Shown here: positions 6,876 to 41,129 of the stretch, piece by piece
Position numbering within the stretch: the first letter of the stretch is position 1
How the letters are laid out: each line of letters starts with the position of its first letter
NCBI GenBank assembly: GCA_012518675.1
Contig: JAAYRR010000133.1
Span: forward strand, 7,015-71,014
Length of the DNA: 64,000 bases
Origin: Bacillota bacterium
Lineage (GTDB): Bacteria; Bacillota; Dethiobacteria; DTU022; UBA8154
Direction: 5' to 3'
The notes under the pieces: model-generated
Seen by the model: the letters and a program-made list of their open reading frames with translations, nothing else
Database searches by the model: none
What the model was told of the DNA's origin: nothing
Program-made: the position numbers and the translations under genes

Positions 6876-7272
6876 GTCCTGGTTTCGATAGTACATTTTT
6901 GCACAGTTCGTCCTTCTATTTTTACCCTTGCAGCCGGTAAAGTTTTCTGTTTCCTGCCTTCTTTTTTGCCGGCCCGGGTTCTTACCCCGGCAAAAGGGGA
7001 AAAAATCTTTTTTTTATAATGGATACTATACTTTTAAAATATTATTGCATGTTTCATTGTTGCAAATATTTTTAAGAAAATTTCAAAACCGAATGTTTAC
7101 TTGAAACATTAGGGAAAAATTTTGTAGGCACAGAACCCTTTCCGTTTAGCTCTGCATCGCATTCCAGAAGAAATTAACTATAATTGGCATCTATTTTGCA
7201 TTATTAAATTGTTAATTTTACCAGAAAAATGAGTACCCTGGAAATTATTGTTTTAAGAACAGGAGGAAAATA

Positions 7273-7668
7273 ATGAAACTGGAAAAAGTTGACCACATCT
7301 GTATCGCAGTAAAAAACCTGAAGGAAGCAGAAAGTTATTTTTCCCGTATTTTTGGCTTGGAACCCGATGATCGCTATGTGGATGAAAAGGAAAAAATTGA
7401 CGTGGTGCGCTATTATATCGGTGAGGTAGGCCTCGAACTTGTAGCTTCCACCGCCCCGGATGGGGAGGTAGCAAGGTTTATTGAAAAAAGAGGCGAAGGG
7501 ATCTTCATCCTGTCCCTCAAGGTACCCGATGTAGAAGAAGCTGTAGTTGAGTTGCGTAAAAAAGGTGTTCCCATTCTGGATGAAGAGCCGCGTAAATGGC
7601 GGCAAAGCAAATATACCTTCATCAGCCCTAAGGATATGTTTGGGGTGCTGTTGGAGATTATTGATTAA
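7273..7668 (+). CDS. VOC/glyoxalase-family protein, probable methylmalonyl-CoA epimerase
   Basis: 131 aa. N-terminal KVDHICIAVKNL.EA and GEGIFILSLKV fit the paired beta-alpha-beta-beta-beta VOC fold seen in methylmalonyl-CoA epimerases. AGGAGGAAAATAATG RBS. Confidence 0.65.
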   Translation: MKLEKVDHICIAVKNLKEAESYFSRIFGLEPDDRYVDEKEKIDVVRYYIGEVGLELVASTAPDGEVARFIEKRGEGIFILSLKVPDVEEAVVELRKKGVPILDEEPRKWRQSKYTFISPKDMFGVLLEIID

Positions 7669-33199: not shown

Positions 33200-34015
33200 T
33201 TAGCGTTGTATTTCAAGCCAATCCTTATCTTCTTTTTCCAGCTTACCAAGCAGATACGGGTTTAAAACCCTTAAATAGGTTCCCTTCATACCCAAAGAAT
33301 GGGTTTCAATTACGCCTGCACTTTTAAGTTTTCGCAAGGCATTAACAATTACCGACCTGGTAATATTCAATTTATCAGCAACCTTACTGGTCACAATCAG
33401 GCCCTCATTTGCTTCTAATTCTTTAAATACCCGGACCGCTGCTTCCAATTCAGAATACGACAGCGCCCCTATCGCTTGCTGTACGGCAGCCTTGTTTCTG
33501 ATTTTTTCTTCGGTTATTCCTGATTCTAAATTTAAGATTTCTATGCCTGCAACAGTAGCCACTGTCTCCGCAAGAATCAAATCACCTGTATCAAAAGGTT
33601 TGTGGGGACGAATTAAAATAAGAACCCCCAACCTTTTATTGCGGCCCAAAATAGGAACAAAGGTGGTAAATATATTTTTAAAAATACATGTTTCCGCCCT
33701 GTTAAAAATACATTTGTTATTACTTTGCGCCAAGTTTACCTTGCCCCGGCCTTCCAAGCCATACAACATAGGGTCTTGAAAGTTTTCCGGAAACTGTCCT
33801 TTCTTTAAGAAACCGTCCATCAGCCCACAACTGTATTCATTTACAAGTGCATACCGTAAAATTTTGCCTTCGGTATCAGTAATATATACGTTAGCATGAA
33901 TTACATTTTTTAAAACCTTGATTACTTCAAAATGCTTCACTTTTTGTTCTGTTTGCAGTGTTTTACGAATAAAACGAGTCTTTTCCAGCAAAGAAGAATT
34001 AATCACTTTTACCAC
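33200..34015 (-). CDS. CodY-family GAF/wHTH transcriptional regulator, paralog 1
   Basis: The C-terminal 100 aa is nearly identical to the B. subtilis CodY HTH region (ADKLNITRSVIVNALRKLKSAGVIETHSLGMKGTYLRVLN). ILAETVATVAGIEIL and AVQQAIGALSYSELEA are also present. The N-terminal GAF portion is diverged. Confidence 0.8.
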   Translation of the reverse strand: MVKVINSSLLEKTRFIRKTLQTEQKVKHFEVIKVLKNVIHANVYITDTEGKILRYALVNEYSCGLMDGFLKKGQFPENFQDPMLYGLEGRGKVNLAQSNNKCIFNRAETCIFKNIFTTFVPILGRNKRLGVLILIRPHKPFDTGDLILAETVATVAGIEILNLESGITEEKIRNKAAVQQAIGALSYSELEAAVRVFKELEANEGLIVTSKVADKLNITRSVIVNALRKLKSAGVIETHSLGMKGTYLRVLNPYLLGKLEKEDKDWLEIQR

Positions 34016-34146: not shown

Positions 34147-35730
34147 TTATTCTACCTTCTCACCAATTTTACGTAATTTAAACCGCTGTATTTTCCCGGT
34201 TGCACTCTTGGGCAGTTCAGAAACAATTTCTACAAAGCGGGGGTATTTAAATTTGGCCAACCGATCCAAGGACCACTGTTTGAGTTCGTTTATTAGTTCA
34301 TCCGAACCGGTAAAGCCTTCCTTAAGTACCACAAAAGCTTTGGGTTTAATTAAATTTTTATGATCAGGGTACCCGATCACTGCACATTCCAGCACCGCAG
34401 GATGTTCAATCAGGCAACCTTCCACTTCTACCGGTGAAACCCAGATACCGCCAACTTTCAGCATGTCATCGTCCCTGCCCGCACAATGGTAATAACCATT
34501 TTCGTCTTGGTAGTAAGTGTCCCCAGTGTTCAGCCATTCACCTTGCATCGTAGAACGGGTTTTTTCCACCTTACGCCAATAATTTTGGGCAGCACTGCGG
34601 CCCTTCACATGCAGGGTTCCGATTTCGCCCTGTGGTACTTCCTTCCCTTCATTATCAACAATCCTTATTTCATACCCGGGAACAGGCTTCCCGGTTGCGC
34701 CCGGTTTAATGTCGCCAGGTCTGTTGGAAATATAGATATGCAACATTTCTGTTGAACCGATACCATCCAAAATATCGATACCAAAACGTTCCTTCCAGCG
34801 GCGGATGATATCTACCGGCAAAGCCTCACCTGCCGACACACATAATCTTACGGAAGTTAGTTCGTGATCGTTGGGATCCGCCTTGGCACCTGTTTCCTTT
34901 TCTTGGCGAGCCTTGTATTCAAGCATCTGCCCGTAGAGGGTGGGTACACCAAAGAAAATTGTAGGACGGAAACGTTCAATGTGACTAAATACACTTTCGG
35001 GAGTCGGGCGGGATTTGTTTAAAATCACTGAACCGCCTACAGCCAAGGGGAAAAACAAACCGTTCCCGATACCATAGGCAAAAAATAACCGGGCTGCTGA
35101 AAAACAGATATCATTTTCATTCATTCCCAAAACTCCCTGGGCAAAATTTTCAGAAGCAACCAGGGGGCTTTCCATACAGTGTACAGCTCCCTTGGGGGGG
35201 CCTGTTGAACCTGAACTGTAAAGCCAGAACCCTACATCGTCCTTGGTTGTTTTCACAGTTTCCAAAATAGGAGAAGCATTTTTTACCTTTTGCCTGAAGG
35301 GGATTAACGGTTCATCATCTGCAACAACAATCATATCCCTAAGGTAAAGCAGATCACCTTTAATATCATTAATCAACGGTACCAGGTCTTCCGATATAAT
35401 CAAGGCCTTGGCCCGGCTGTCGTTAAGTAAGTATTCATAATCGTTGGGTGTAAGCATGGTGTTGATTGGAATGGGCACAGCCCCAATTTTCATGGCACCG
35501 AAAAACATTACAAGAAATTGAGGTTCATCCAGCATCATGAGCATAATGCGATCATCTATACCCAAACCCATTTCACGAAAAGCGTTGCCGGTTTTATTGG
35601 CCATTTCCTGCAGTTCGCTATAAGTGTAGTTGCGCCTTTCAGTATAAATGGCAACTTTATGACCTCTTCCCTGCCGAATATTTCTATCTAAAAAATAATC
35701 TGCCGCGTTAAAAAAAGGTTGGTTTTTCAT
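34147..35730 (-). CDS. Aromatic-acid--CoA ligase, benzoate-CoA ligase family (AMP-forming), copy 1
   Basis: AMP-binding motifs WLYSSGSTGPPKGAVH and GYGxTE-like GIGSTEMLH, the C-terminal ATGKIQR, and 527 aa, typical for BCL/4-hydroxybenzoate-CoA ligases. Confidence 0.75.
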   Translation of the reverse strand: MKNQPFFNAADYFLDRNIRQGRGHKVAIYTERRNYTYSELQEMANKTGNAFREMGLGIDDRIMLMMLDEPQFLVMFFGAMKIGAVPIPINTMLTPNDYEYLLNDSRAKALIISEDLVPLINDIKGDLLYLRDMIVVADDEPLIPFRQKVKNASPILETVKTTKDDVGFWLYSSGSTGPPKGAVHCMESPLVASENFAQGVLGMNENDICFSAARLFFAYGIGNGLFFPLAVGGSVILNKSRPTPESVFSHIERFRPTIFFGVPTLYGQMLEYKARQEKETGAKADPNDHELTSVRLCVSAGEALPVDIIRRWKERFGIDILDGIGSTEMLHIYISNRPGDIKPGATGKPVPGYEIRIVDNEGKEVPQGEIGTLHVKGRSAAQNYWRKVEKTRSTMQGEWLNTGDTYYQDENGYYHCAGRDDDMLKVGGIWVSPVEVEGCLIEHPAVLECAVIGYPDHKNLIKPKAFVVLKEGFTGSDELINELKQWSLDRLAKFKYPRFVEIVSELPKSATGKIQRFKLRKIGEKVE

Positions 35731-36241
35731 TATTTATCCCCCCACTAAGTTGAATTTAATACACTAAGATTCCCAGAAAATCTTCCAGCCCTGTTTCCCT
35801 GCTCATTAAATAATTTTATATTGACAAAATACACCTTAAATTTTACATTACCCTACCCCCTCTTTGATGCTTGAAATATGTTAAAAAACTAGATATTTTT
35901 CTCAAAATTGCCTGAAAATATTTTTCTTGCGGGAAAAGGTTCACTGCTTTAAAAAATTCAAAGAGTCAAACTTCTTTTATTGTTATACCATGCAAGATAA
36001 GTACCATTAAAGTACATTTTTCTTCTAATTGCGATAGAACCGTAACCAGACCAGCCTTGATTATTCTTCCTGGCCTGCCTACCCATGTAAAATGTAGGTC
36101 ATTTTTGAAATTTAATTTTGAAAGATTGCAATATTGAAATGTATGTTAATGTTGTTTTTTTGCATTTTTTAGGGCTTTTGGAATCTTCAAACACTATTTA
36201 TTGTTCCCCTACTCGCTAATCTACAGATGCATAATGGACAT

Positions 36242-36266
36242 AAAAAAGCAGCTCCTGACGGAGCTA
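36242..36266 (-). terminator. Terminator (AGCTCC-GTCA-GGAGCT followed by T6 on the minus strand)
   Basis: Perfect 6-bp stem with a T-run, immediately downstream of the 70-aa ORF. Confidence 0.55.
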
Positions 36267-36306
36267 TCTTGGACACAATATTTTTTTTCGCTTAAATTTC
36301 CCAGCA

Positions 36307-36519
36307 CTACTCCCCGCTCATTTTTACAACGCTAATGAAAGAGTTCCCGGGGACCATTTCCCGACCACAGTTTAATTTTTCTGCTCCTGCCGCCATTTTT
36401 TTCTTTACGCCTGGCGCATCAAGTGTTTTTTCAATTTCTGAAAATTCCCTTAAAATATTGGAGAGTTTAACATCAACCAAGATCAGTTCTCTTTTCAATT
36501 TTTCAATTCTATTTAACAT
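36307..36519 (-). CDS. Hypothetical 70-aa helical protein (weak Spo0E-like resemblance)
   Basis: ORF sits between the CodY-like paralog 2 gene and a terminator. The IEKLKRELILV...SEIEKTLD pattern is reminiscent of Spo0E-family helical hairpins, but the signature is not exact. Confidence 0.35.
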   Translation of the reverse strand: MLNRIEKLKRELILVDVKLSNILREFSEIEKTLDAPGVKKKMAAGAEKLNCGREMVPGNSFISVVKMSGE

Positions 36520-36638
36520 TTTTACCCTTGCCTCCCGGATAAAAAATTATATTCTGCACATGCTTTCAATCTATTTTATAAGCCCTGGTCGGCAGTTTTT
36601 ACCACCGTTTTTGAATCCCGTAATTAATAAACGGCATG

Positions 36639-37451
36639 CTAGCGCATCCCAAGCCAATTTTTATCCTCTTTTTCCAGTCGATCCAGTAAATACGGGTTTA
36701 AGACCCTTAAATAGGTTCCTTTCATCCCCAGGGAATGAGTTTCTATTACGCCGGCACTTTTAAGCTTACGCAATGCGTTAACAATAACAGACCTGGTTAT
36801 GCTCAATTTATCTGCAACCTTGCTGGTCACAATCAAACCTTCATCTGTATCCAATTCTTTAAAAACTCGTACCGCTGCCTCCAACTCTGAATAGGACAGC
36901 GCTCCTATTGCTTGCTGCACGATCATCTTGTTTCTGATCTTCTTTTCAAGTTTTTCAGATTTTGAATTCAGAATTGACATCCCGGAAACCGTTGCCACTG
37001 TTTCAGCCAAAATTAAATCCCCGGTATCAAAAGGTTTCAGGGGACGGGTTAAAATTAGTGTTCCTATTCTTTTATTCTGGCCAATAATGGGCACCAGCGT
37101 TGTAAATATATTTTTAAAAACACAGTTTTCGGCCTGTGTAAATATGCACCTGCTAACTTCCTGTGTTAAATTTATCCTGCTTCGGTTGTCGATCCCATGC
37201 AACAGGGAATCCTGATATTTTTCAGTAAATTTGCCTTTTTTAAGGAACCTATCCAGAAGCTCACAACTGTATTCATCCACCAAGGCATGCCCCAAAATAA
37301 GACCATCGGTATCAATAATAAACACATTGGCATGAATGACGTTCTTTAAAACTTCAATTATTTCGAAGAGTTTTACCCCCTGTTCTGTTTGCAAAGTTTT
37401 GCGAATAAAGCGGGTTTTTTCCAACAAAGAAGAATTAAGCAATGTTATCAC
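36639..37451 (-). CDS. CodY-family GAF/wHTH transcriptional regulator, paralog 2
   Basis: About 75 percent identical to paralog 1. The C-terminal HTH is essentially identical, while the N-terminal GAF differs at many positions. Confidence 0.8.
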   Translation of the reverse strand: MITLLNSSLLEKTRFIRKTLQTEQGVKLFEIIEVLKNVIHANVFIIDTDGLILGHALVDEYSCELLDRFLKKGKFTEKYQDSLLHGIDNRSRINLTQEVSRCIFTQAENCVFKNIFTTLVPIIGQNKRIGTLILTRPLKPFDTGDLILAETVATVSGMSILNSKSEKLEKKIRNKMIVQQAIGALSYSELEAAVRVFKELDTDEGLIVTSKVADKLSITRSVIVNALRKLKSAGVIETHSLGMKGTYLRVLNPYLLDRLEKEDKNWLGMR

Positions 37452-37615
37452 CTCCTCAACTCCTTATGTTTATATTAAAAATAGAGGGGCCTCCTCTTTA
37501 ATGCAAACGCTGCCTAAACAAATAAAACGGAGGCCCCTGGTACCAAAAATCTGCACAATTATAAATATTTAACTATTGATATTTAACGGCTTTTGAACAA
37601 CCGTATCTTACTTGG

Positions 37616-39211
37616 TTATTTGGAAGCGGCGTCAGCCTTTTCACTTGCCAAGCGCAGTTTAAACCGCTGAATTTTGCCGGTTGCACTCTTGGGTAGTTCA
37701 GAAATAAATTCTATCCAACGCGGATACTTATATTTGGCCATCCGCTCCAGGGCAAACTGCTTCAGTTCATTGGCCAGCTCTTCAGAACCGGCCGATCCAT
37801 CCTTGAGCACAACATAAGCCTTGGGTTTAATTAAATTCTTTTCATCAGGATGCCCGATCACTGCAGATTCCAGAACAGCAGGGTGTTCAATTAAACAGGC
37901 TTCCACCTCAACCGGCGATACCCAGATACCGCCTACCTTCAGCATATCATCGCCCCTGCCGGCACAGCGGTAATAGCCTTCGTCGTCTACATAATAGCTG
38001 TCACCGGTATCAAGCCATTCCCCCCGCATTGTGGAACGGGTTTTATCTACCTTGCGCCAGTAATTCTGGGCGGCACTGCGGCCTTTTGCCAACAGCCTGC
38101 CTATTTCCCCCTGGGGAACCTCGTTCCCTTCATCATCGACAATTTTAATTTCATAACCAGGGACCGGTTTGCCGGAGGTACCGGGCCTGACATCACCGGG
38201 CAGGTTGGAAATATAGATGTGCAACATTTCTGTAGAGCCGATGCCGTCTAAAATATCTACGCCAAAACGTTCCTTCCAGCGGCGGAGAATATCTTCCGGC
38301 AGGGCTTCCCCGGCCGAAACACACATCCGTACAGAAGAAAGTTCGTGGACTTCAGGATCGGGATCTACACCCTTTTCCTTATCCTGGCGTGCCTTGTATT
38401 CAAGCATCTGCCCATACAAGGTGGGTACACCGAAGAAAAGGGTAGGCCGGAAACGTTCCAGTACGCTAAACACACTTTCGGGAGTCGGGCGGGATTTATT
38501 TAAAACCACTGATCCGCCGGCGGCCATGGGGAAAAACATGCTGTTACCGATACCGTAGGCAAAAAACAGCCGTGCTGCCGAAAAACAGATGTCATCCTCG
38601 GTTACCCCCAACACACCTTTGCCATAGTTTGTGGCGGCAACCAGCGGGCTTTCCATACAGTGCACAGCACCCTTGGGGGGGCCAGTAGAACCTGAGCTGT
38701 AAAGCCAAAATCCCACATCGTCCTTGGTTGTATATTCAGCATCCAAAATAGGAGAAGCGTTTTTGACTTTTTGTCGGAAAGGAACTTGTGGTTCATCATC
38801 AGAGACAACAATCATATCCCTGAGATAAAGAAGATCCCCTTTAATACCACTGATTAATGGTACCAGTTCTTCAGAAATTACCAGCGCCTTGGCCCGGCTG
38901 TCATTTAGCAGGTATTCATAGTCGCTAGGTGTAAGCATGGTGTTAATCGGAACAGGTACAGCACCGATTTTGATGGCACCGAAGTACATTACAAAAAATT
39001 GGGGTTCATCCAGCATCAACAGTATAATCCGGTCGCCGACTTCTAAACCCAGCTCACGGAAAGCGTTGCCTGTTTTGTTGGCCATTTCCTGAATTTCACT
39101 GTAAGTATAATTGCGCCTGTCGGTATAAATGGCAACCTTATGTCCCCTGCCCTGTCGAATGTTCCGATCTAAAAAATAATCCGCAATGTTAAAGAAAGAT
39201 TGATTTTTCAT
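37616..39211 (-). CDS. Aromatic-acid--CoA ligase, benzoate-CoA ligase family, copy 2
   Basis: About 80 percent identical to copy 1, with the same AMP-binding motifs, 531 aa. Confidence 0.75.
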   Translation of the reverse strand: MKNQSFFNIADYFLDRNIRQGRGHKVAIYTDRRNYTYSEIQEMANKTGNAFRELGLEVGDRIILLMLDEPQFFVMYFGAIKIGAVPVPINTMLTPSDYEYLLNDSRAKALVISEELVPLISGIKGDLLYLRDMIVVSDDEPQVPFRQKVKNASPILDAEYTTKDDVGFWLYSSGSTGPPKGAVHCMESPLVAATNYGKGVLGVTEDDICFSAARLFFAYGIGNSMFFPMAAGGSVVLNKSRPTPESVFSVLERFRPTLFFGVPTLYGQMLEYKARQDKEKGVDPDPEVHELSSVRMCVSAGEALPEDILRRWKERFGVDILDGIGSTEMLHIYISNLPGDVRPGTSGKPVPGYEIKIVDDEGNEVPQGEIGRLLAKGRSAAQNYWRKVDKTRSTMRGEWLDTGDSYYVDDEGYYRCAGRGDDMLKVGGIWVSPVEVEACLIEHPAVLESAVIGHPDEKNLIKPKAYVVLKDGSAGSEELANELKQFALERMAKYKYPRWIEFISELPKSATGKIQRFKLRLASEKADAASK

Positions 39212-39360
39212 GATATGATCACCCCGTAAAATTTATAATTTTTAATAGGCTTATTGCCCTCAATAAACAATACCATTAATATTTCGCAAATATTTCAGAA
39301 AATGTGAGTACTTATTTTAAAAATTACATTCATCCAACCTCCTTTTACTGGGTGGGTACC

Positions 39361-39378
39361 TTAGCTGGGGTGTGCCAA
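39361..39378 (-). promoter_or_regulatory. Candidate sigma-54 (-24/-12) promoter TTGGCAC-N5-AGCTA
   Basis: The minus strand reads TTGGCACACCCCAGCTAA, with GG-N10-GC spacing correct. It lies about 150 nt upstream of ligase copy 2 and downstream of a sigma-54 activator gene. Confidence 0.4.
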
Positions 39379-39752
39379 ATCAGTTTCCAGAACCATTTTT
39401 CTTAAGATTGCTAAAAAGATTTTTTTGCGGCAAAAAACCCACAGGTTTCAAAACTTTAAAGAGTCCCACTAATTTTAATAATTAATTATGCAAAATAGGT
39501 GCCAGTTGAAACATCTATGTTTGCCAAGTGCGACTAAACCAGCCTGCGGGGGTCTTTTGAACTGCCCGGCCGCCCTTGAAACCTGCCCAAGAATCAAATC
39601 ATTTATGAAACTTATTTTAAAATAATTGCAAAACTGAAATGCGTAAATATGCTTTATATTAAAATAAAAAAAGCAGTTCCCTGGGGAGCTGTCCTAATTT
39701 TTAAGCGGAAAACAAGGCGGGCACTGCATAGGCAGGGTAGCCCAACCTTTGC

Positions 39753-41129
39753 CTATCCTCTCAGCTTTCTGGAAAGACTGGAAAAGCTGATGCCCAGCAT
39801 TTCCGCAGCCTCTTTCTGACTTTTACTTTGTTCCATTGCTTTGGTAATCACCGCCAGTTCAAATTCCTTGGTCATCTCTTTTAACGGTGCTATATCGTGA
39901 ACTGTAAACTTATCCTCAGGTTGATGCCCTGTATAGTTAATATAGGGAGCAGGAAGATCAGCAACTGTAATCACATTTTCCTTGGCCACTATCAAGAGCC
40001 GTTCCACCAGATTAGCCAATTCTCTGATGTTGCCCGGCCAGGGATACCAGTACAAATGCTTGATTACCTCCGGGCTGATTTTTTTATTGCGAATAGCATA
40101 TTTTTGCAAGAATTTGTCTTGAAAATAGGAAATTAACATGGGTATTTCCACCTTGCGATCCCGCAAAGGGGGCACCTCTACAGGAACAACATGCAACCTG
40201 AAATACAGGTCCTCCCGAAATTTACCTTCTTCAACCATTTTTTTAAGATCCCTGTTTGTCGCCCCCACGATACGCACATCCACAGGCAATAATTCTGTAC
40301 CACCCACCCTGGATACCTTTTTATCCTGCAAAACGTTAAGTAGTTTGGGCTGAACCGCCAGCGGCAGTTCACCTATTTCATCCAGAAAAAGTGTACCCCC
40401 ATCCGCCAGTTCAAAATAGCCTTTTTTGCCCCTTTTTAGGGCACCGGTAAAGGAACCCGGTTCATAACCAAACAGTTCGGTTTCAACTAAATTTATAGGT
40501 ATGGAGGCACAGTTAATTTTAACAAAGGGGCCGGTCATGTTACGGGGACTGCGTACGTGAATAAGGTGCGCAATCAATTCCTTACCTACACCTGTTTCAC
40601 CGTGCAGCAGCACGGTGGAGTCTACCTTGCTTAAATTAACAGCCAAGTCAATTATTGCCTCCATCATGCTGCTGCCAAATACTAATTCATAATCAGAATG
40701 TTGGCCTTTAATCTGTACAATTTTGTAAGGATCCTTGAAATTCACTTTTCCGCCGGGCCGTGGCAGGGGGTTATTTTTTTTAGCCTCTAAATAGGAGGCA
40801 TAGCTTCTAATATTGCATATTACCTTATTCAATTTTCCTGCAAGATCAAAAACAGGTGCTGAGGTAGCAATCACCTTGTGGCCGGTAATACATTTGACCT
40901 CCCCGGTAACAGCACTTTTTTTTTGAATAGCCTCCAGGGCTGTAGATCTGTCGATTATTTTTTTTGCGAGTAAAACATTTAGGCTTTCATATGCAAACAT
41001 ATCCATACCCATTAAAGAGTGGATTACCGGATTACAATAAAGAAACATCCCCTGAACATCGGTAATAAAAAAACCGTCGCCGGAGTGCTCAAAAAGTTCT
41101 GCCAAATTTACGGTACCCTTTACTTTCAA
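39753..41129 (-). CDS. Sigma-54-dependent transcriptional activator with N-terminal PAS sensor and C-terminal Fis-type HTH
   Basis: AAA+ sigma-54 interaction domain (GETGVGKE Walker A, GSFTGA, ESELFGY...), C-terminal HTH (EAAEMLGISFSSLSRKL), and an N-terminal PAS-like region of about 110 aa. Confidence 0.85.
   Translation of the reverse strand: MKVKGTVNLAELFEHSGDGFFITDVQGMFLYCNPVIHSLMGMDMFAYESLNVLLAKKIIDRSTALEAIQKKSAVTGEVKCITGHKVIATSAPVFDLAGKLNKVICNIRSYASYLEAKKNNPLPRPGGKVNFKDPYKIVQIKGQHSDYELVFGSSMMEAIIDLAVNLSKVDSTVLLHGETGVGKELIAHLIHVRSPRNMTGPFVKINCASIPINLVETELFGYEPGSFTGALKRGKKGYFELADGGTLFLDEIGELPLAVQPKLLNVLQDKKVSRVGGTELLPVDVRIVGATNRDLKKMVEEGKFREDLYFRLHVVPVEVPPLRDRKVEIPMLISYFQDKFLQKYAIRNKKISPEVIKHLYWYPWPGNIRELANLVERLLIVAKENVITVADLPAPYINYTGHQPEDKFTVHDIAPLKEMTKEFELAVITKAMEQSKSQKEAAEMLGISFSSLSRKLRG

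Follow-up and report, generated by a model that had tools for sequence, protein, structure and literature searches.

A predicted sigma-54 promoter and a long conserved leader upstream of a benzoate-CoA-ligase-family gene linked to CodY-family genes in a Bacillota bacterium

In a 64-kb window of the Bacillota contig JAAYRR010000133.1 (the whole stretch that was analyzed; all coordinates are window positions), a gene of the benzoate-CoA ligase family stands downstream of a gene for a sigma-54 enhancer-binding protein (EBP) and upstream of a gene for a CodY-family protein. The ligase occurs in two copies within paralogous modules, copies 2 and 1, which are referred to below as lig2 and lig1; related loci are designated by L-codes. 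The locus raises the question of where the transcription of ligase copy 2 begins, and whether the interval 39283-39378, in front of the ligase, forms a promoter-operator pair. An earlier note had read it in this way: a sigma-54 promoter at 39378-39361 (minus strand), switched on by a PAS-containing EBP, was supposed to drive the ligase, while a CodY-family repressor bound to a palindrome further downstream was supposed to block elongation. The comparison of the locus with its paralog and its relatives points elsewhere. Very probably, a canonical sigma-54 promoter at 39504-39489, together with its upstream activator sequence (UAS), drives the ligase, and the flagged interval belongs to the middle of the 5' untranslated leader, its two motifs being chance look-alikes.

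Promoter and activator sequence of ligase copy 2

The string TGGCACCTATTTTGCA constitutes the sole exact match to TGGCAC-N5-TTGCW in the window, where 0.10 would be expected. It precedes the 39378-39361 string by 126 nt and the start codon of the ligase (ATG at 39211) by 293 nt. The yardstick for its conservation is provided by the 4-fold degenerate sites of the paralogs, taken as a neutral proxy, which are 49% identical in the ligases and 38% identical in the CodY-family genes. The -24/-12 promoter is 81% identical between the paralogous modules. The UAS is 77% identical between the paralogous promoters, versus 38-49% at neutral sites, and exact 17-mer matches to it occur only at the two ligase promoters.

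With the ligase protein as query, related loci were collected from Dethiobacteria-like and other Bacillota metagenome-assembled genomes (MAGs). The resulting set of 13 promoters, anchored on the -24 element, comprises three from the window and ten from MAGs (L005, L005b, L006-L010, L062, L066, and L070). In L005, L006, L007, L008, L010, L062, L066, and L070, a TGG[CT]A[CT]-N5-TTGCA sequence precedes the ATG of the ligase by 239-331 nt; in L009 the sigma-54 site lies 69 nt upstream of the ATG, and L005 has a second copy, L005b. The UAS occupies positions -137..-94 from the -24 TGG in all 13 aligned promoters, and the distant promoter group contains a co-varying version of it (TATTCAGTTATGCAAT...TCAGAAATGAATAC). 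Most of the 13 also share an aTCGCA-like box (TCGCAC in lig2) at an identical position. Wherever the contig extends far enough, an orthologous EBP gene is situated directly upstream (EBP-ligase synteny in L005, L007, L008, L009, L010, L062, and L066).

A promoter of this kind is absent in the sampled deltaproteobacterial ligase homologs with 63-71% identity (L012, L013, L014, L022, L033, and L058), as well as in the Bacillota loci L011, L030, and L055. None of the homologous loci with at most 71% identity has an adjacent EBP ortholog or CodY-like gene, and they are therefore uninformative for the leader. A metagenome scan for more diverse leaders returned the same lineages only: L085-L089 duplicate the window, L005, L062, L070, and L010. 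Several of these ligase-carrying metagenome contigs start within 30-80 nt downstream of the sigma-54 promoter, probably due to assembly breakage at the repeated UAS-promoter cassette.

The protein encoded by the adjacent EBP gene matches the Pfam families Sigma54_activat (E 1.7e-64), AAA_lid_14, and HTH_8, and a GSFTGA loop is read in its translation. Its N-terminus is weakly PAS-like (Pfam PAS_8, E 5.6e-4, below the cut-off; the PAS domain of PDB ID: 2r78, E 7.5e-4); the PAS part of the label PAS-EBP in the earlier note corresponds to these sub-threshold matches only. PAS-type one-component EBPs in Clostridiales show the same EBP/UAS/sigma-54 architecture (PMC6615313). Judged from its sequence, the 39504-39489 region is an ordinary EBP-activated sigma-54 promoter, textbook in the promoter itself. 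The adjacent EBP is predicted to bind the 44-bp UAS (39641-39598) and thereby to activate this promoter.

Two further promoters in the window, TGGTACTTATCTTGCA and TGGCATCTATTTTGCA, are one-mismatch versions of the sigma-54 consensus. The same UAS-promoter cassette would drive the tandem paralogous module (36006-35991) and a distant VOC-family gene (7185-7200). As the promoter of the VOC gene has a UAS of the same type, at least three transcription units in the window are apparently under the control of the EBP. A distance of 32 kb separates the EBP gene from the monocistronic VOC gene that follows the region of the TGGCATCTATTTTGCA promoter (7050-7200, plus strand).

With the -12 C at 39490, the transcription start site (TSS) is predicted at about 39478. 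A unit comprising ligase copy 2, CodY-family copy 2, and a 70-aa open reading frame (ORF), orf70, would most likely be transcribed from this position under the 39504-39489 promoter; the co-transcription of the CodY-family gene with the ligase is presumed from this layout. A sigma-70 promoter in the leader was ruled out, as the minus strand has no sigma-70-like site (at least 9 of 12 positions) from 39212 to 39750. Over the same range and strand, no terminator-like site was detected besides the EBP terminator. The latter, a hairpin with a T-run (39692-39660), was found by a scan that assigned it to the plus strand; it is predicted to end the EBP transcript and to insulate the ligase promoter from read-through.

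The two motifs of the flagged interval

A TSS at about 39478 places the flagged interval (39378-39283) at about +101 to +196 of the leader. The interval would then be a mid-leader segment, not a promoter-operator pair. Both strings named in the earlier note are physically present: TTGGCACACCCCAGCTAA at 39378-39361 on the minus strand, and the CodY-like string at 39289/39290-39304, a 16-nt sequence that starts at 39289 and not, as first given, at 39288. The observation as a whole held up only in part, since the spacing ascribed to the first string was wrong and both strings stand at the chance or neutral level.

The proposed promoter was said to fit a GG-N10-GC frame. Within TTGGCACACCCCAGC (39378-39364, minus strand), GG occupies 39376-39375 and GC occupies 39365-39364, i.e., the spacing is N9; when the N10 register is imposed, the -12 element reads AGCT versus TTGC, with 0/4 matches. 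Sigma-54 promoters are reportedly intolerant of a 1-bp change in spacing, as Buck is said to have found in 1986. The string agrees with TGGCAC-N5-TTGCW at 7 of its 11 specified positions, a score equaled or exceeded at 1,606 places in the window; the heptamer TTGGCAC occurs seven times in the window, versus 12.8 expected. Its paralog identity (39%) falls within the range of the neutral 4-fold sites (38-49%). In L066 (ligase 95% identical), CAGCT is changed to AAACT and the GC of the proposed -12 element is lost; in L005 (ligase 85% identical), TTGGCAC is changed to GAAGCAC with the loss of GG; lig1 and L006 have TTAACATATTTCAA at the aligned place, and GG or GC is lost. The string is a chance TTGGCAC, one base short between GG and GC. 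Another possible role for this segment was discarded: pairing of CACCCC (in the proposed sigma-54 string) and CCCACCC with the Shine-Dalgarno (SD) sequence of the ligase, GGGGTG, because the minimum free energy structure does not pair them and because lig1 and L006 have a deletion of the C-rich segment.

The second motif was estimated in the earlier note to match the CodY box at about 12 of 15 positions, and the count is correct (12/15, ungapped, versus AATTTTCWGAAAATT at 39290-39304). Dinucleotide shuffles of the 267-nt leader (32% GC) contain one or more matches with at most three mismatches with a probability of 0.13. The paralog identity at this string is 41%, i.e., at the neutral level. 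At the corresponding position no other leader has a match with at most three mismatches, the box being absent from L005, L006, and lig1; the second such match in lig2 is a different site, at +70. In this AT-rich sequence, the 12/15 agreement of the 39290-39304 box does not clearly exceed what chance would give.

Consequently, the scheme in which the 39378-39361 string drives the ligase and a CodY-family repressor at 39290-39304 blocks elongation is highly improbable. It can draw on TTGGCAC as a perfect -24 element, on the 12/15 box with its good right half-site TTTCAGAAAAT, on the canonical DNA-contact residues of the CodY-family proteins encoded in the operon, and on roadblock repression as a known CodY mechanism (PMC10415144); it is opposed by the N9 spacing and the unmatched -12 element, by the loss of GG or GC in L005, L066, lig1, and L006, by the neutral identity of both sites, and by the perfect conserved promoter with its UAS that stands 126 bp upstream. 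Its broader outline survives in altered form. The dependence of the ligase module on sigma-54 and the EBP is supported, via 39504-39489 and not via the named site. Gating by a CodY-family protein is possible in principle, as the DNA-contact residues are kept, whereas an operator at 39290-39304 is unsupported in view of its neutral conservation.

Several points weigh against transcription from 39504-39489 with two coincidental motifs in the leader. The position of the TSS, about 39478, is predicted from that of the promoter. No rpoN gene occurs among the ORFs of at least 150 aa that were scanned, a scan that covered the window only. The 13 promoters come from about eight related MAG lineages, and their conservation is partly a matter of short divergence time; for the paralog pair, the comparison with 4-fold sites speaks against this. 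The conserved leader length of about 250-300 nt is not accounted for. Each leader contains two matches to the CodY box with at most three mismatches, versus 0.15 expected (P of about 0.013). In Bacillus, CodY sites remain functional with several mismatches, and a 12/15 site could still work.

The leader and the linked CodY-family proteins

The leader measures 213-305 nt in 11 of the 13 promoters. Between the paralogs, the first ~25 nt of the transcript are 65% identical, and the AT-rich block at +25 to +87 consists of three dyads of T-runs and A-runs, among them TTTTTTGC-C-GCAAAAAA (lig1 counterpart at 35955-35890, minus strand). A search of Rfam with 35650-39800 on both strands gave no matches at E of at most 1, hence no known riboswitch or leader RNA, and RNAalifold on six leaders gave no supported or covarying structure (-0.54 kcal/mol). 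A structured RNA element was rejected, as shuffled versions of the two leaders gave more stable folds (z of the leaders +1.35 and +1.16).

Within the AT-rich block, the CodY-box-like dyad at +70 reads AATTTTGAGAAAAAT in lig1 and L006 (two mismatches) and has three mismatches in L066; for L005, a manual count gives four mismatches at +70, and the scan gave no match with three or fewer. The dyad is absent from the L007, L008, L010, and L062 leaders; L008, L010, and L062 carry a CodY-family gene after the ligase. An overlapping 24-nt double CodY site was also considered: by visual comparison it does not fit at +61/+72, and the two boxes of lig1 are offset from each other by 11 nt, not 9.

The CodY-family protein of copy 2 matches Pfam CodY (9e-43) and HTH_CodY (8e-26), and that of copy 1 likewise combines the GAF-like N-terminal domain with the CodY winged helix-turn-helix. 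Copies 1 and 2 score 288 and 292.9 bits with NF003170, above the cut-off of 255, and 256 and 262.6 bits with TIGR02787, just below the cut-off of 267.2. In an alignment referred to the CodY-DNA complexes of PMC10415144, their DNA-contact elements are identical to those of Bacillus subtilis CodY (LSYS, T/R/S/V/V/R of the recognition helix, and L-G-M of the wing), and the stretches LSYS, TRSVxVNALRK, and LGMKGT are invariant. As the contact residues are identical, a CodY-box-like specificity is a reasonable expectation. Arg61, which in CodY is ion-paired to the isoleucine carboxylate (PMC5314169), is replaced by Leu in both window copies and by Leu, Ile, or Val across the ligase-linked clade. 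In place of the residues S43/R45/K47, which constitute the GTP P-pocket of CodY (PMC5100569), copy 2 has D/D/L and copy 1 has D/E/K; these residues are replaced across the ligase-linked clade as well. The window proteins probably read CodY-type DNA without sensing branched-chain amino acids (BCAA) or GTP.

The ligase-linked clade also contains conserved Cys residues in the pocket loops. Synteny between the ligase and a CodY-like gene is seen in L005, L006, L008, L010, and L062 (e.g., L005 5754-6554, L010 5820-6599, L008 3913-4707, and L062 5731-6501). Within the library of papers that was searched, none connects CodY with benzoate-CoA ligase.

Compatible with the 39504-39489 promoter would be CodY gating at another place in the leader: the paralogs might bind the AT-rich dyads (39454-39392, including 39409-39395) as a feedback roadblock that responds to an effector other than BCAA or GTP. 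Such gating seems unlikely. The block is 68% identical between the paralogs versus 38-49% at neutral sites, and, being without RNA structure, covariation, or an Rfam match, it favors a DNA motif or a linear motif; it also resembles the UAS half-sites (GCAAT-N4-AAAAT), so that the EBP, rather than a CodY-family protein, could be its binding partner. The +70 box, with two or three mismatches in lig2, lig1, L006, and L066, has four in L005 by manual count, and the leaders of L008, L010, and L062 have no box with at most three mismatches despite their CodY-like gene. The proteins offer further hints, with invariant DNA-contact residues, replaced Arg61 and S43/R45/K47, and synteny with the ligase in five related loci, and other CodY homologs bind AT-rich arms with variable spacers (PMC9318921); AT-rich dyads, on the other hand, readily arise in sequence with 30% GC.

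A more specific proposal, and quite an unlikely one, is that the ligase-linked clade combines the DNA-reading head of CodY with a rebuilt GAF pocket, and acts as a local feedback roadblock at +25 to +87 that forms a two-key switch with the EBP. If so, the EBP at the UAS would be one key, and a CodY-type roadblock in the leader, with an aromatic acid, an acyl-CoA, or some further compound outside the BCAA as its effector, would be the other.

Inside the flagged interval itself, the SD-like AAAGGAGG (39345-39338), followed 8 nt later by AUG-UAA (39329-39324), appears to be the sole constrained element. It is kept in 6/6 close leaders (lig2, lig1, L005, L005b, L006, and L066) at -119..-121 from the ligase ATG. 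In L007, L062, and L070, an SD with a mini-ORF of 2-5 codons is found at -146..-152, and the L008 and L010 leaders contain no SD and mini-ORF element. Most plausibly, by analogy with known leaders, this element would load a ribosome on the leader, for mRNA stabilization or translational tuning.

The best-known analog is the STAB-SD of cry3A, an SD-like sequence next to the processed 5' end at -129, which binds the 30S subunit and blocks RNase J1 (PMC4113751). That the element in the lig2 leader is a STAB-SD or a start-stop ribosome-loading element, which protects the mRNA from 5'-3' decay or tunes ligase translation, is compatible with the 39504-39489 promoter and may be entertained tentatively. 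The recurrence of an SD with a one-codon ORF in six leaders and with mini-ORFs in three distant ones speaks for it, as does the spacing of 8-9 nt between the SD and the AUG, optimal for the conserved AUG; the absence from L008 and L010 and the identity of only 58% between the paralogs in this segment speak against it. Moreover, a classical STAB-SD does not initiate translation, whereas an AUG follows the SD here.

A 12-codon ORF (MNVIFKISTHIF and a stop codon) lies nearer to the SD-like sequence, its start following the GGAGG core by 4 nt (the scored AGGAG by 5 nt) and preceding the conserved AUG by 4 nt. A conserved leader peptide was rejected, as the ATG is missing in L066, L005, lig1, and L006.

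Gene neighborhood and comparison with known systems

The features of the locus are collected in Table 1. orf70, downstream of CodY-family copy 2, has no Pfam match and is conserved in L005 (70% identity) and L006 (86%). Between each ligase and its CodY-family gene there is a long hairpin, AGGGGCCTCC ... GGAGGCCCCT (loop of ~35 nt), with a T-rich run; it is located at 37540-37478 and 34105-34050 (minus strand) and is conserved. It may act as a partial terminator, or else serve in processing or stability.

Table 1 Features of the ligase locus and of related promoters in the window
Feature	Position	Strand	Remarks
Third promoter, TGGCATCTATTTTGCA, same UAS type	7185-7200	+	Upstream of glyoxalase/VOC-family gene 7273-7668
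CodY-family gene, copy 1	33200-34015	-	76% identity with copy 2
Benzoate-CoA ligase family gene, copy 1	34147-35730	-	81% identity with copy 2
Sigma-54 promoter, TGGTACTTATCTTGCA, of the paralogous module (ligase copy 1 / CodY-family copy 1)	35991-36006	-	UAS 36141-36098
orf70 (70 aa)	36307-36519	-	Terminator after ORF at 36266-36249
CodY-family gene, copy 2	36639-37451	-	GAF-like domain and CodY winged helix-turn-helix
Benzoate-CoA ligase family gene, copy 2 (531 aa)	37616-39211	-	TIGR02262, 657.9 bits (cut-off 375)
Predicted 5' untranslated leader, ~267 nt	39212-39478	-	TSS predicted 12 nt downstream of -12 C
CodY-box-like sequence of the earlier note, ATATTTCAGAAAATG, +175..+189	39290-39304	plus-strand reading	12/15
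12-codon ORF	39295-39333	-	Stop codon inside the CodY-like box of the earlier note
SD-like AAAGGAGG, then AUG-UAA	39324-39345	-	Conserved
Candidate sigma-54 site of the earlier note	39361-39378	-	Chance TTGGCAC, GG-N9-GC
AT-rich leader-proximal block, +25..+87, T-run/A-run dyads	39392-39454	-	68% paralog identity
Conserved CodY-box-like dyad, AATCTTAAGAAAAAT, +70	39395-39409		Three mismatches in lig2
Sigma-54 (-24/-12) promoter, TGGCACCTATTTTGCA	39489-39504	-	11/11 consensus, GG-N10-GC
TCGCAC box	39528-39533	-	~29 nt upstream of the -24 element, between UAS and promoter
UAS, 44 bp, CATTTCAGTTTTGCAATTATTTTAAAATAAGTTTCATAAATGA	39598-39641	-	Probable EBP binding sites
Terminator-like hairpin and T-run 3' of the EBP gene	39660-39692	-	CAGCTCCCCAGGGAACTGC then TTTTTTTATTTT
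Sigma-54 EBP gene (458 aa)	39753-41129	-	AAA+ domain, GSFTGA loop, Fis-type helix-turn-helix

The corrected position of the promoter matters for annotating or engineering the locus, as experiments on 39378-39361 would probe the wrong sequence. The corrected map outlines a putative small sigma-54 regulon with three promoters in the window, in an uncultured Dethiobacteria-like Bacillota lineage, and supplies a candidate UAS motif for its activator. Two features deserve further attention: the long conserved leader with its unstructured AT-rich block and its SD and start-stop element, and, as the most interesting residue of the analysis, the CodY clade tied to the ligase, which has a canonical DNA-binding head and is predicted to lack the isoleucine and GTP ligands.

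The arrangement resembles the SigL regulons of Clostridia and other Bacillota (Nie et al. 2019, PMC6615313) in the TGGCAC-N5-TTGCA promoter, in the dyad-rich UAS located ~95-140 bp upstream of the -24 element, and in the EBP gene adjoining its target. The EBP itself shares with the activators of those regulons an AAA+ domain with a GAFTGA-type loop, a C-terminal Fis-type helix-turn-helix, and an N-terminal ligand-sensing domain in place of a receiver domain, although its assignment as PAS is sub-threshold here. Unlike in those regulons, the predicted targets are benzoate-CoA-ligase-family and co-transcribed CodY-family genes, in addition to a VOC-family gene, and the leader is unusually long (~250-300 nt) with a conserved length; CodY, ligase, and benzoate are nowhere mentioned in the text of PMC6615313.

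With CodY roadblock repression, known from Bacillus subtilis and Staphylococcus aureus (box AATTTTCWGAAAATT; PMC10415144), the locus shares AT-rich pseudo-palindromes downstream of the TSS, which is a predicted one here, and an operon that encodes CodY-family proteins with identical DNA-contact residues. It differs in that the 39290-39304 box matches at 12/15 positions and is not conserved, that the conserved +70 box is confined to the closest relatives, and that the local proteins are without Arg61 and the GTP P-pocket, so that no BCAA or GTP sensing is predicted.

The cry3A STAB-SD of Bacillus thuringiensis (PMC4113751) and the element of the lig2 leader are alike in presenting a strong SD-like sequence that precedes the main start codon by about 125-135 nt, within a long leader, and that does not serve the main ORF. 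Unlike in cry3A, an AUG-UAA stands at optimal spacing in the lig2 leader, and a full cycle of initiation and termination may be possible on it.

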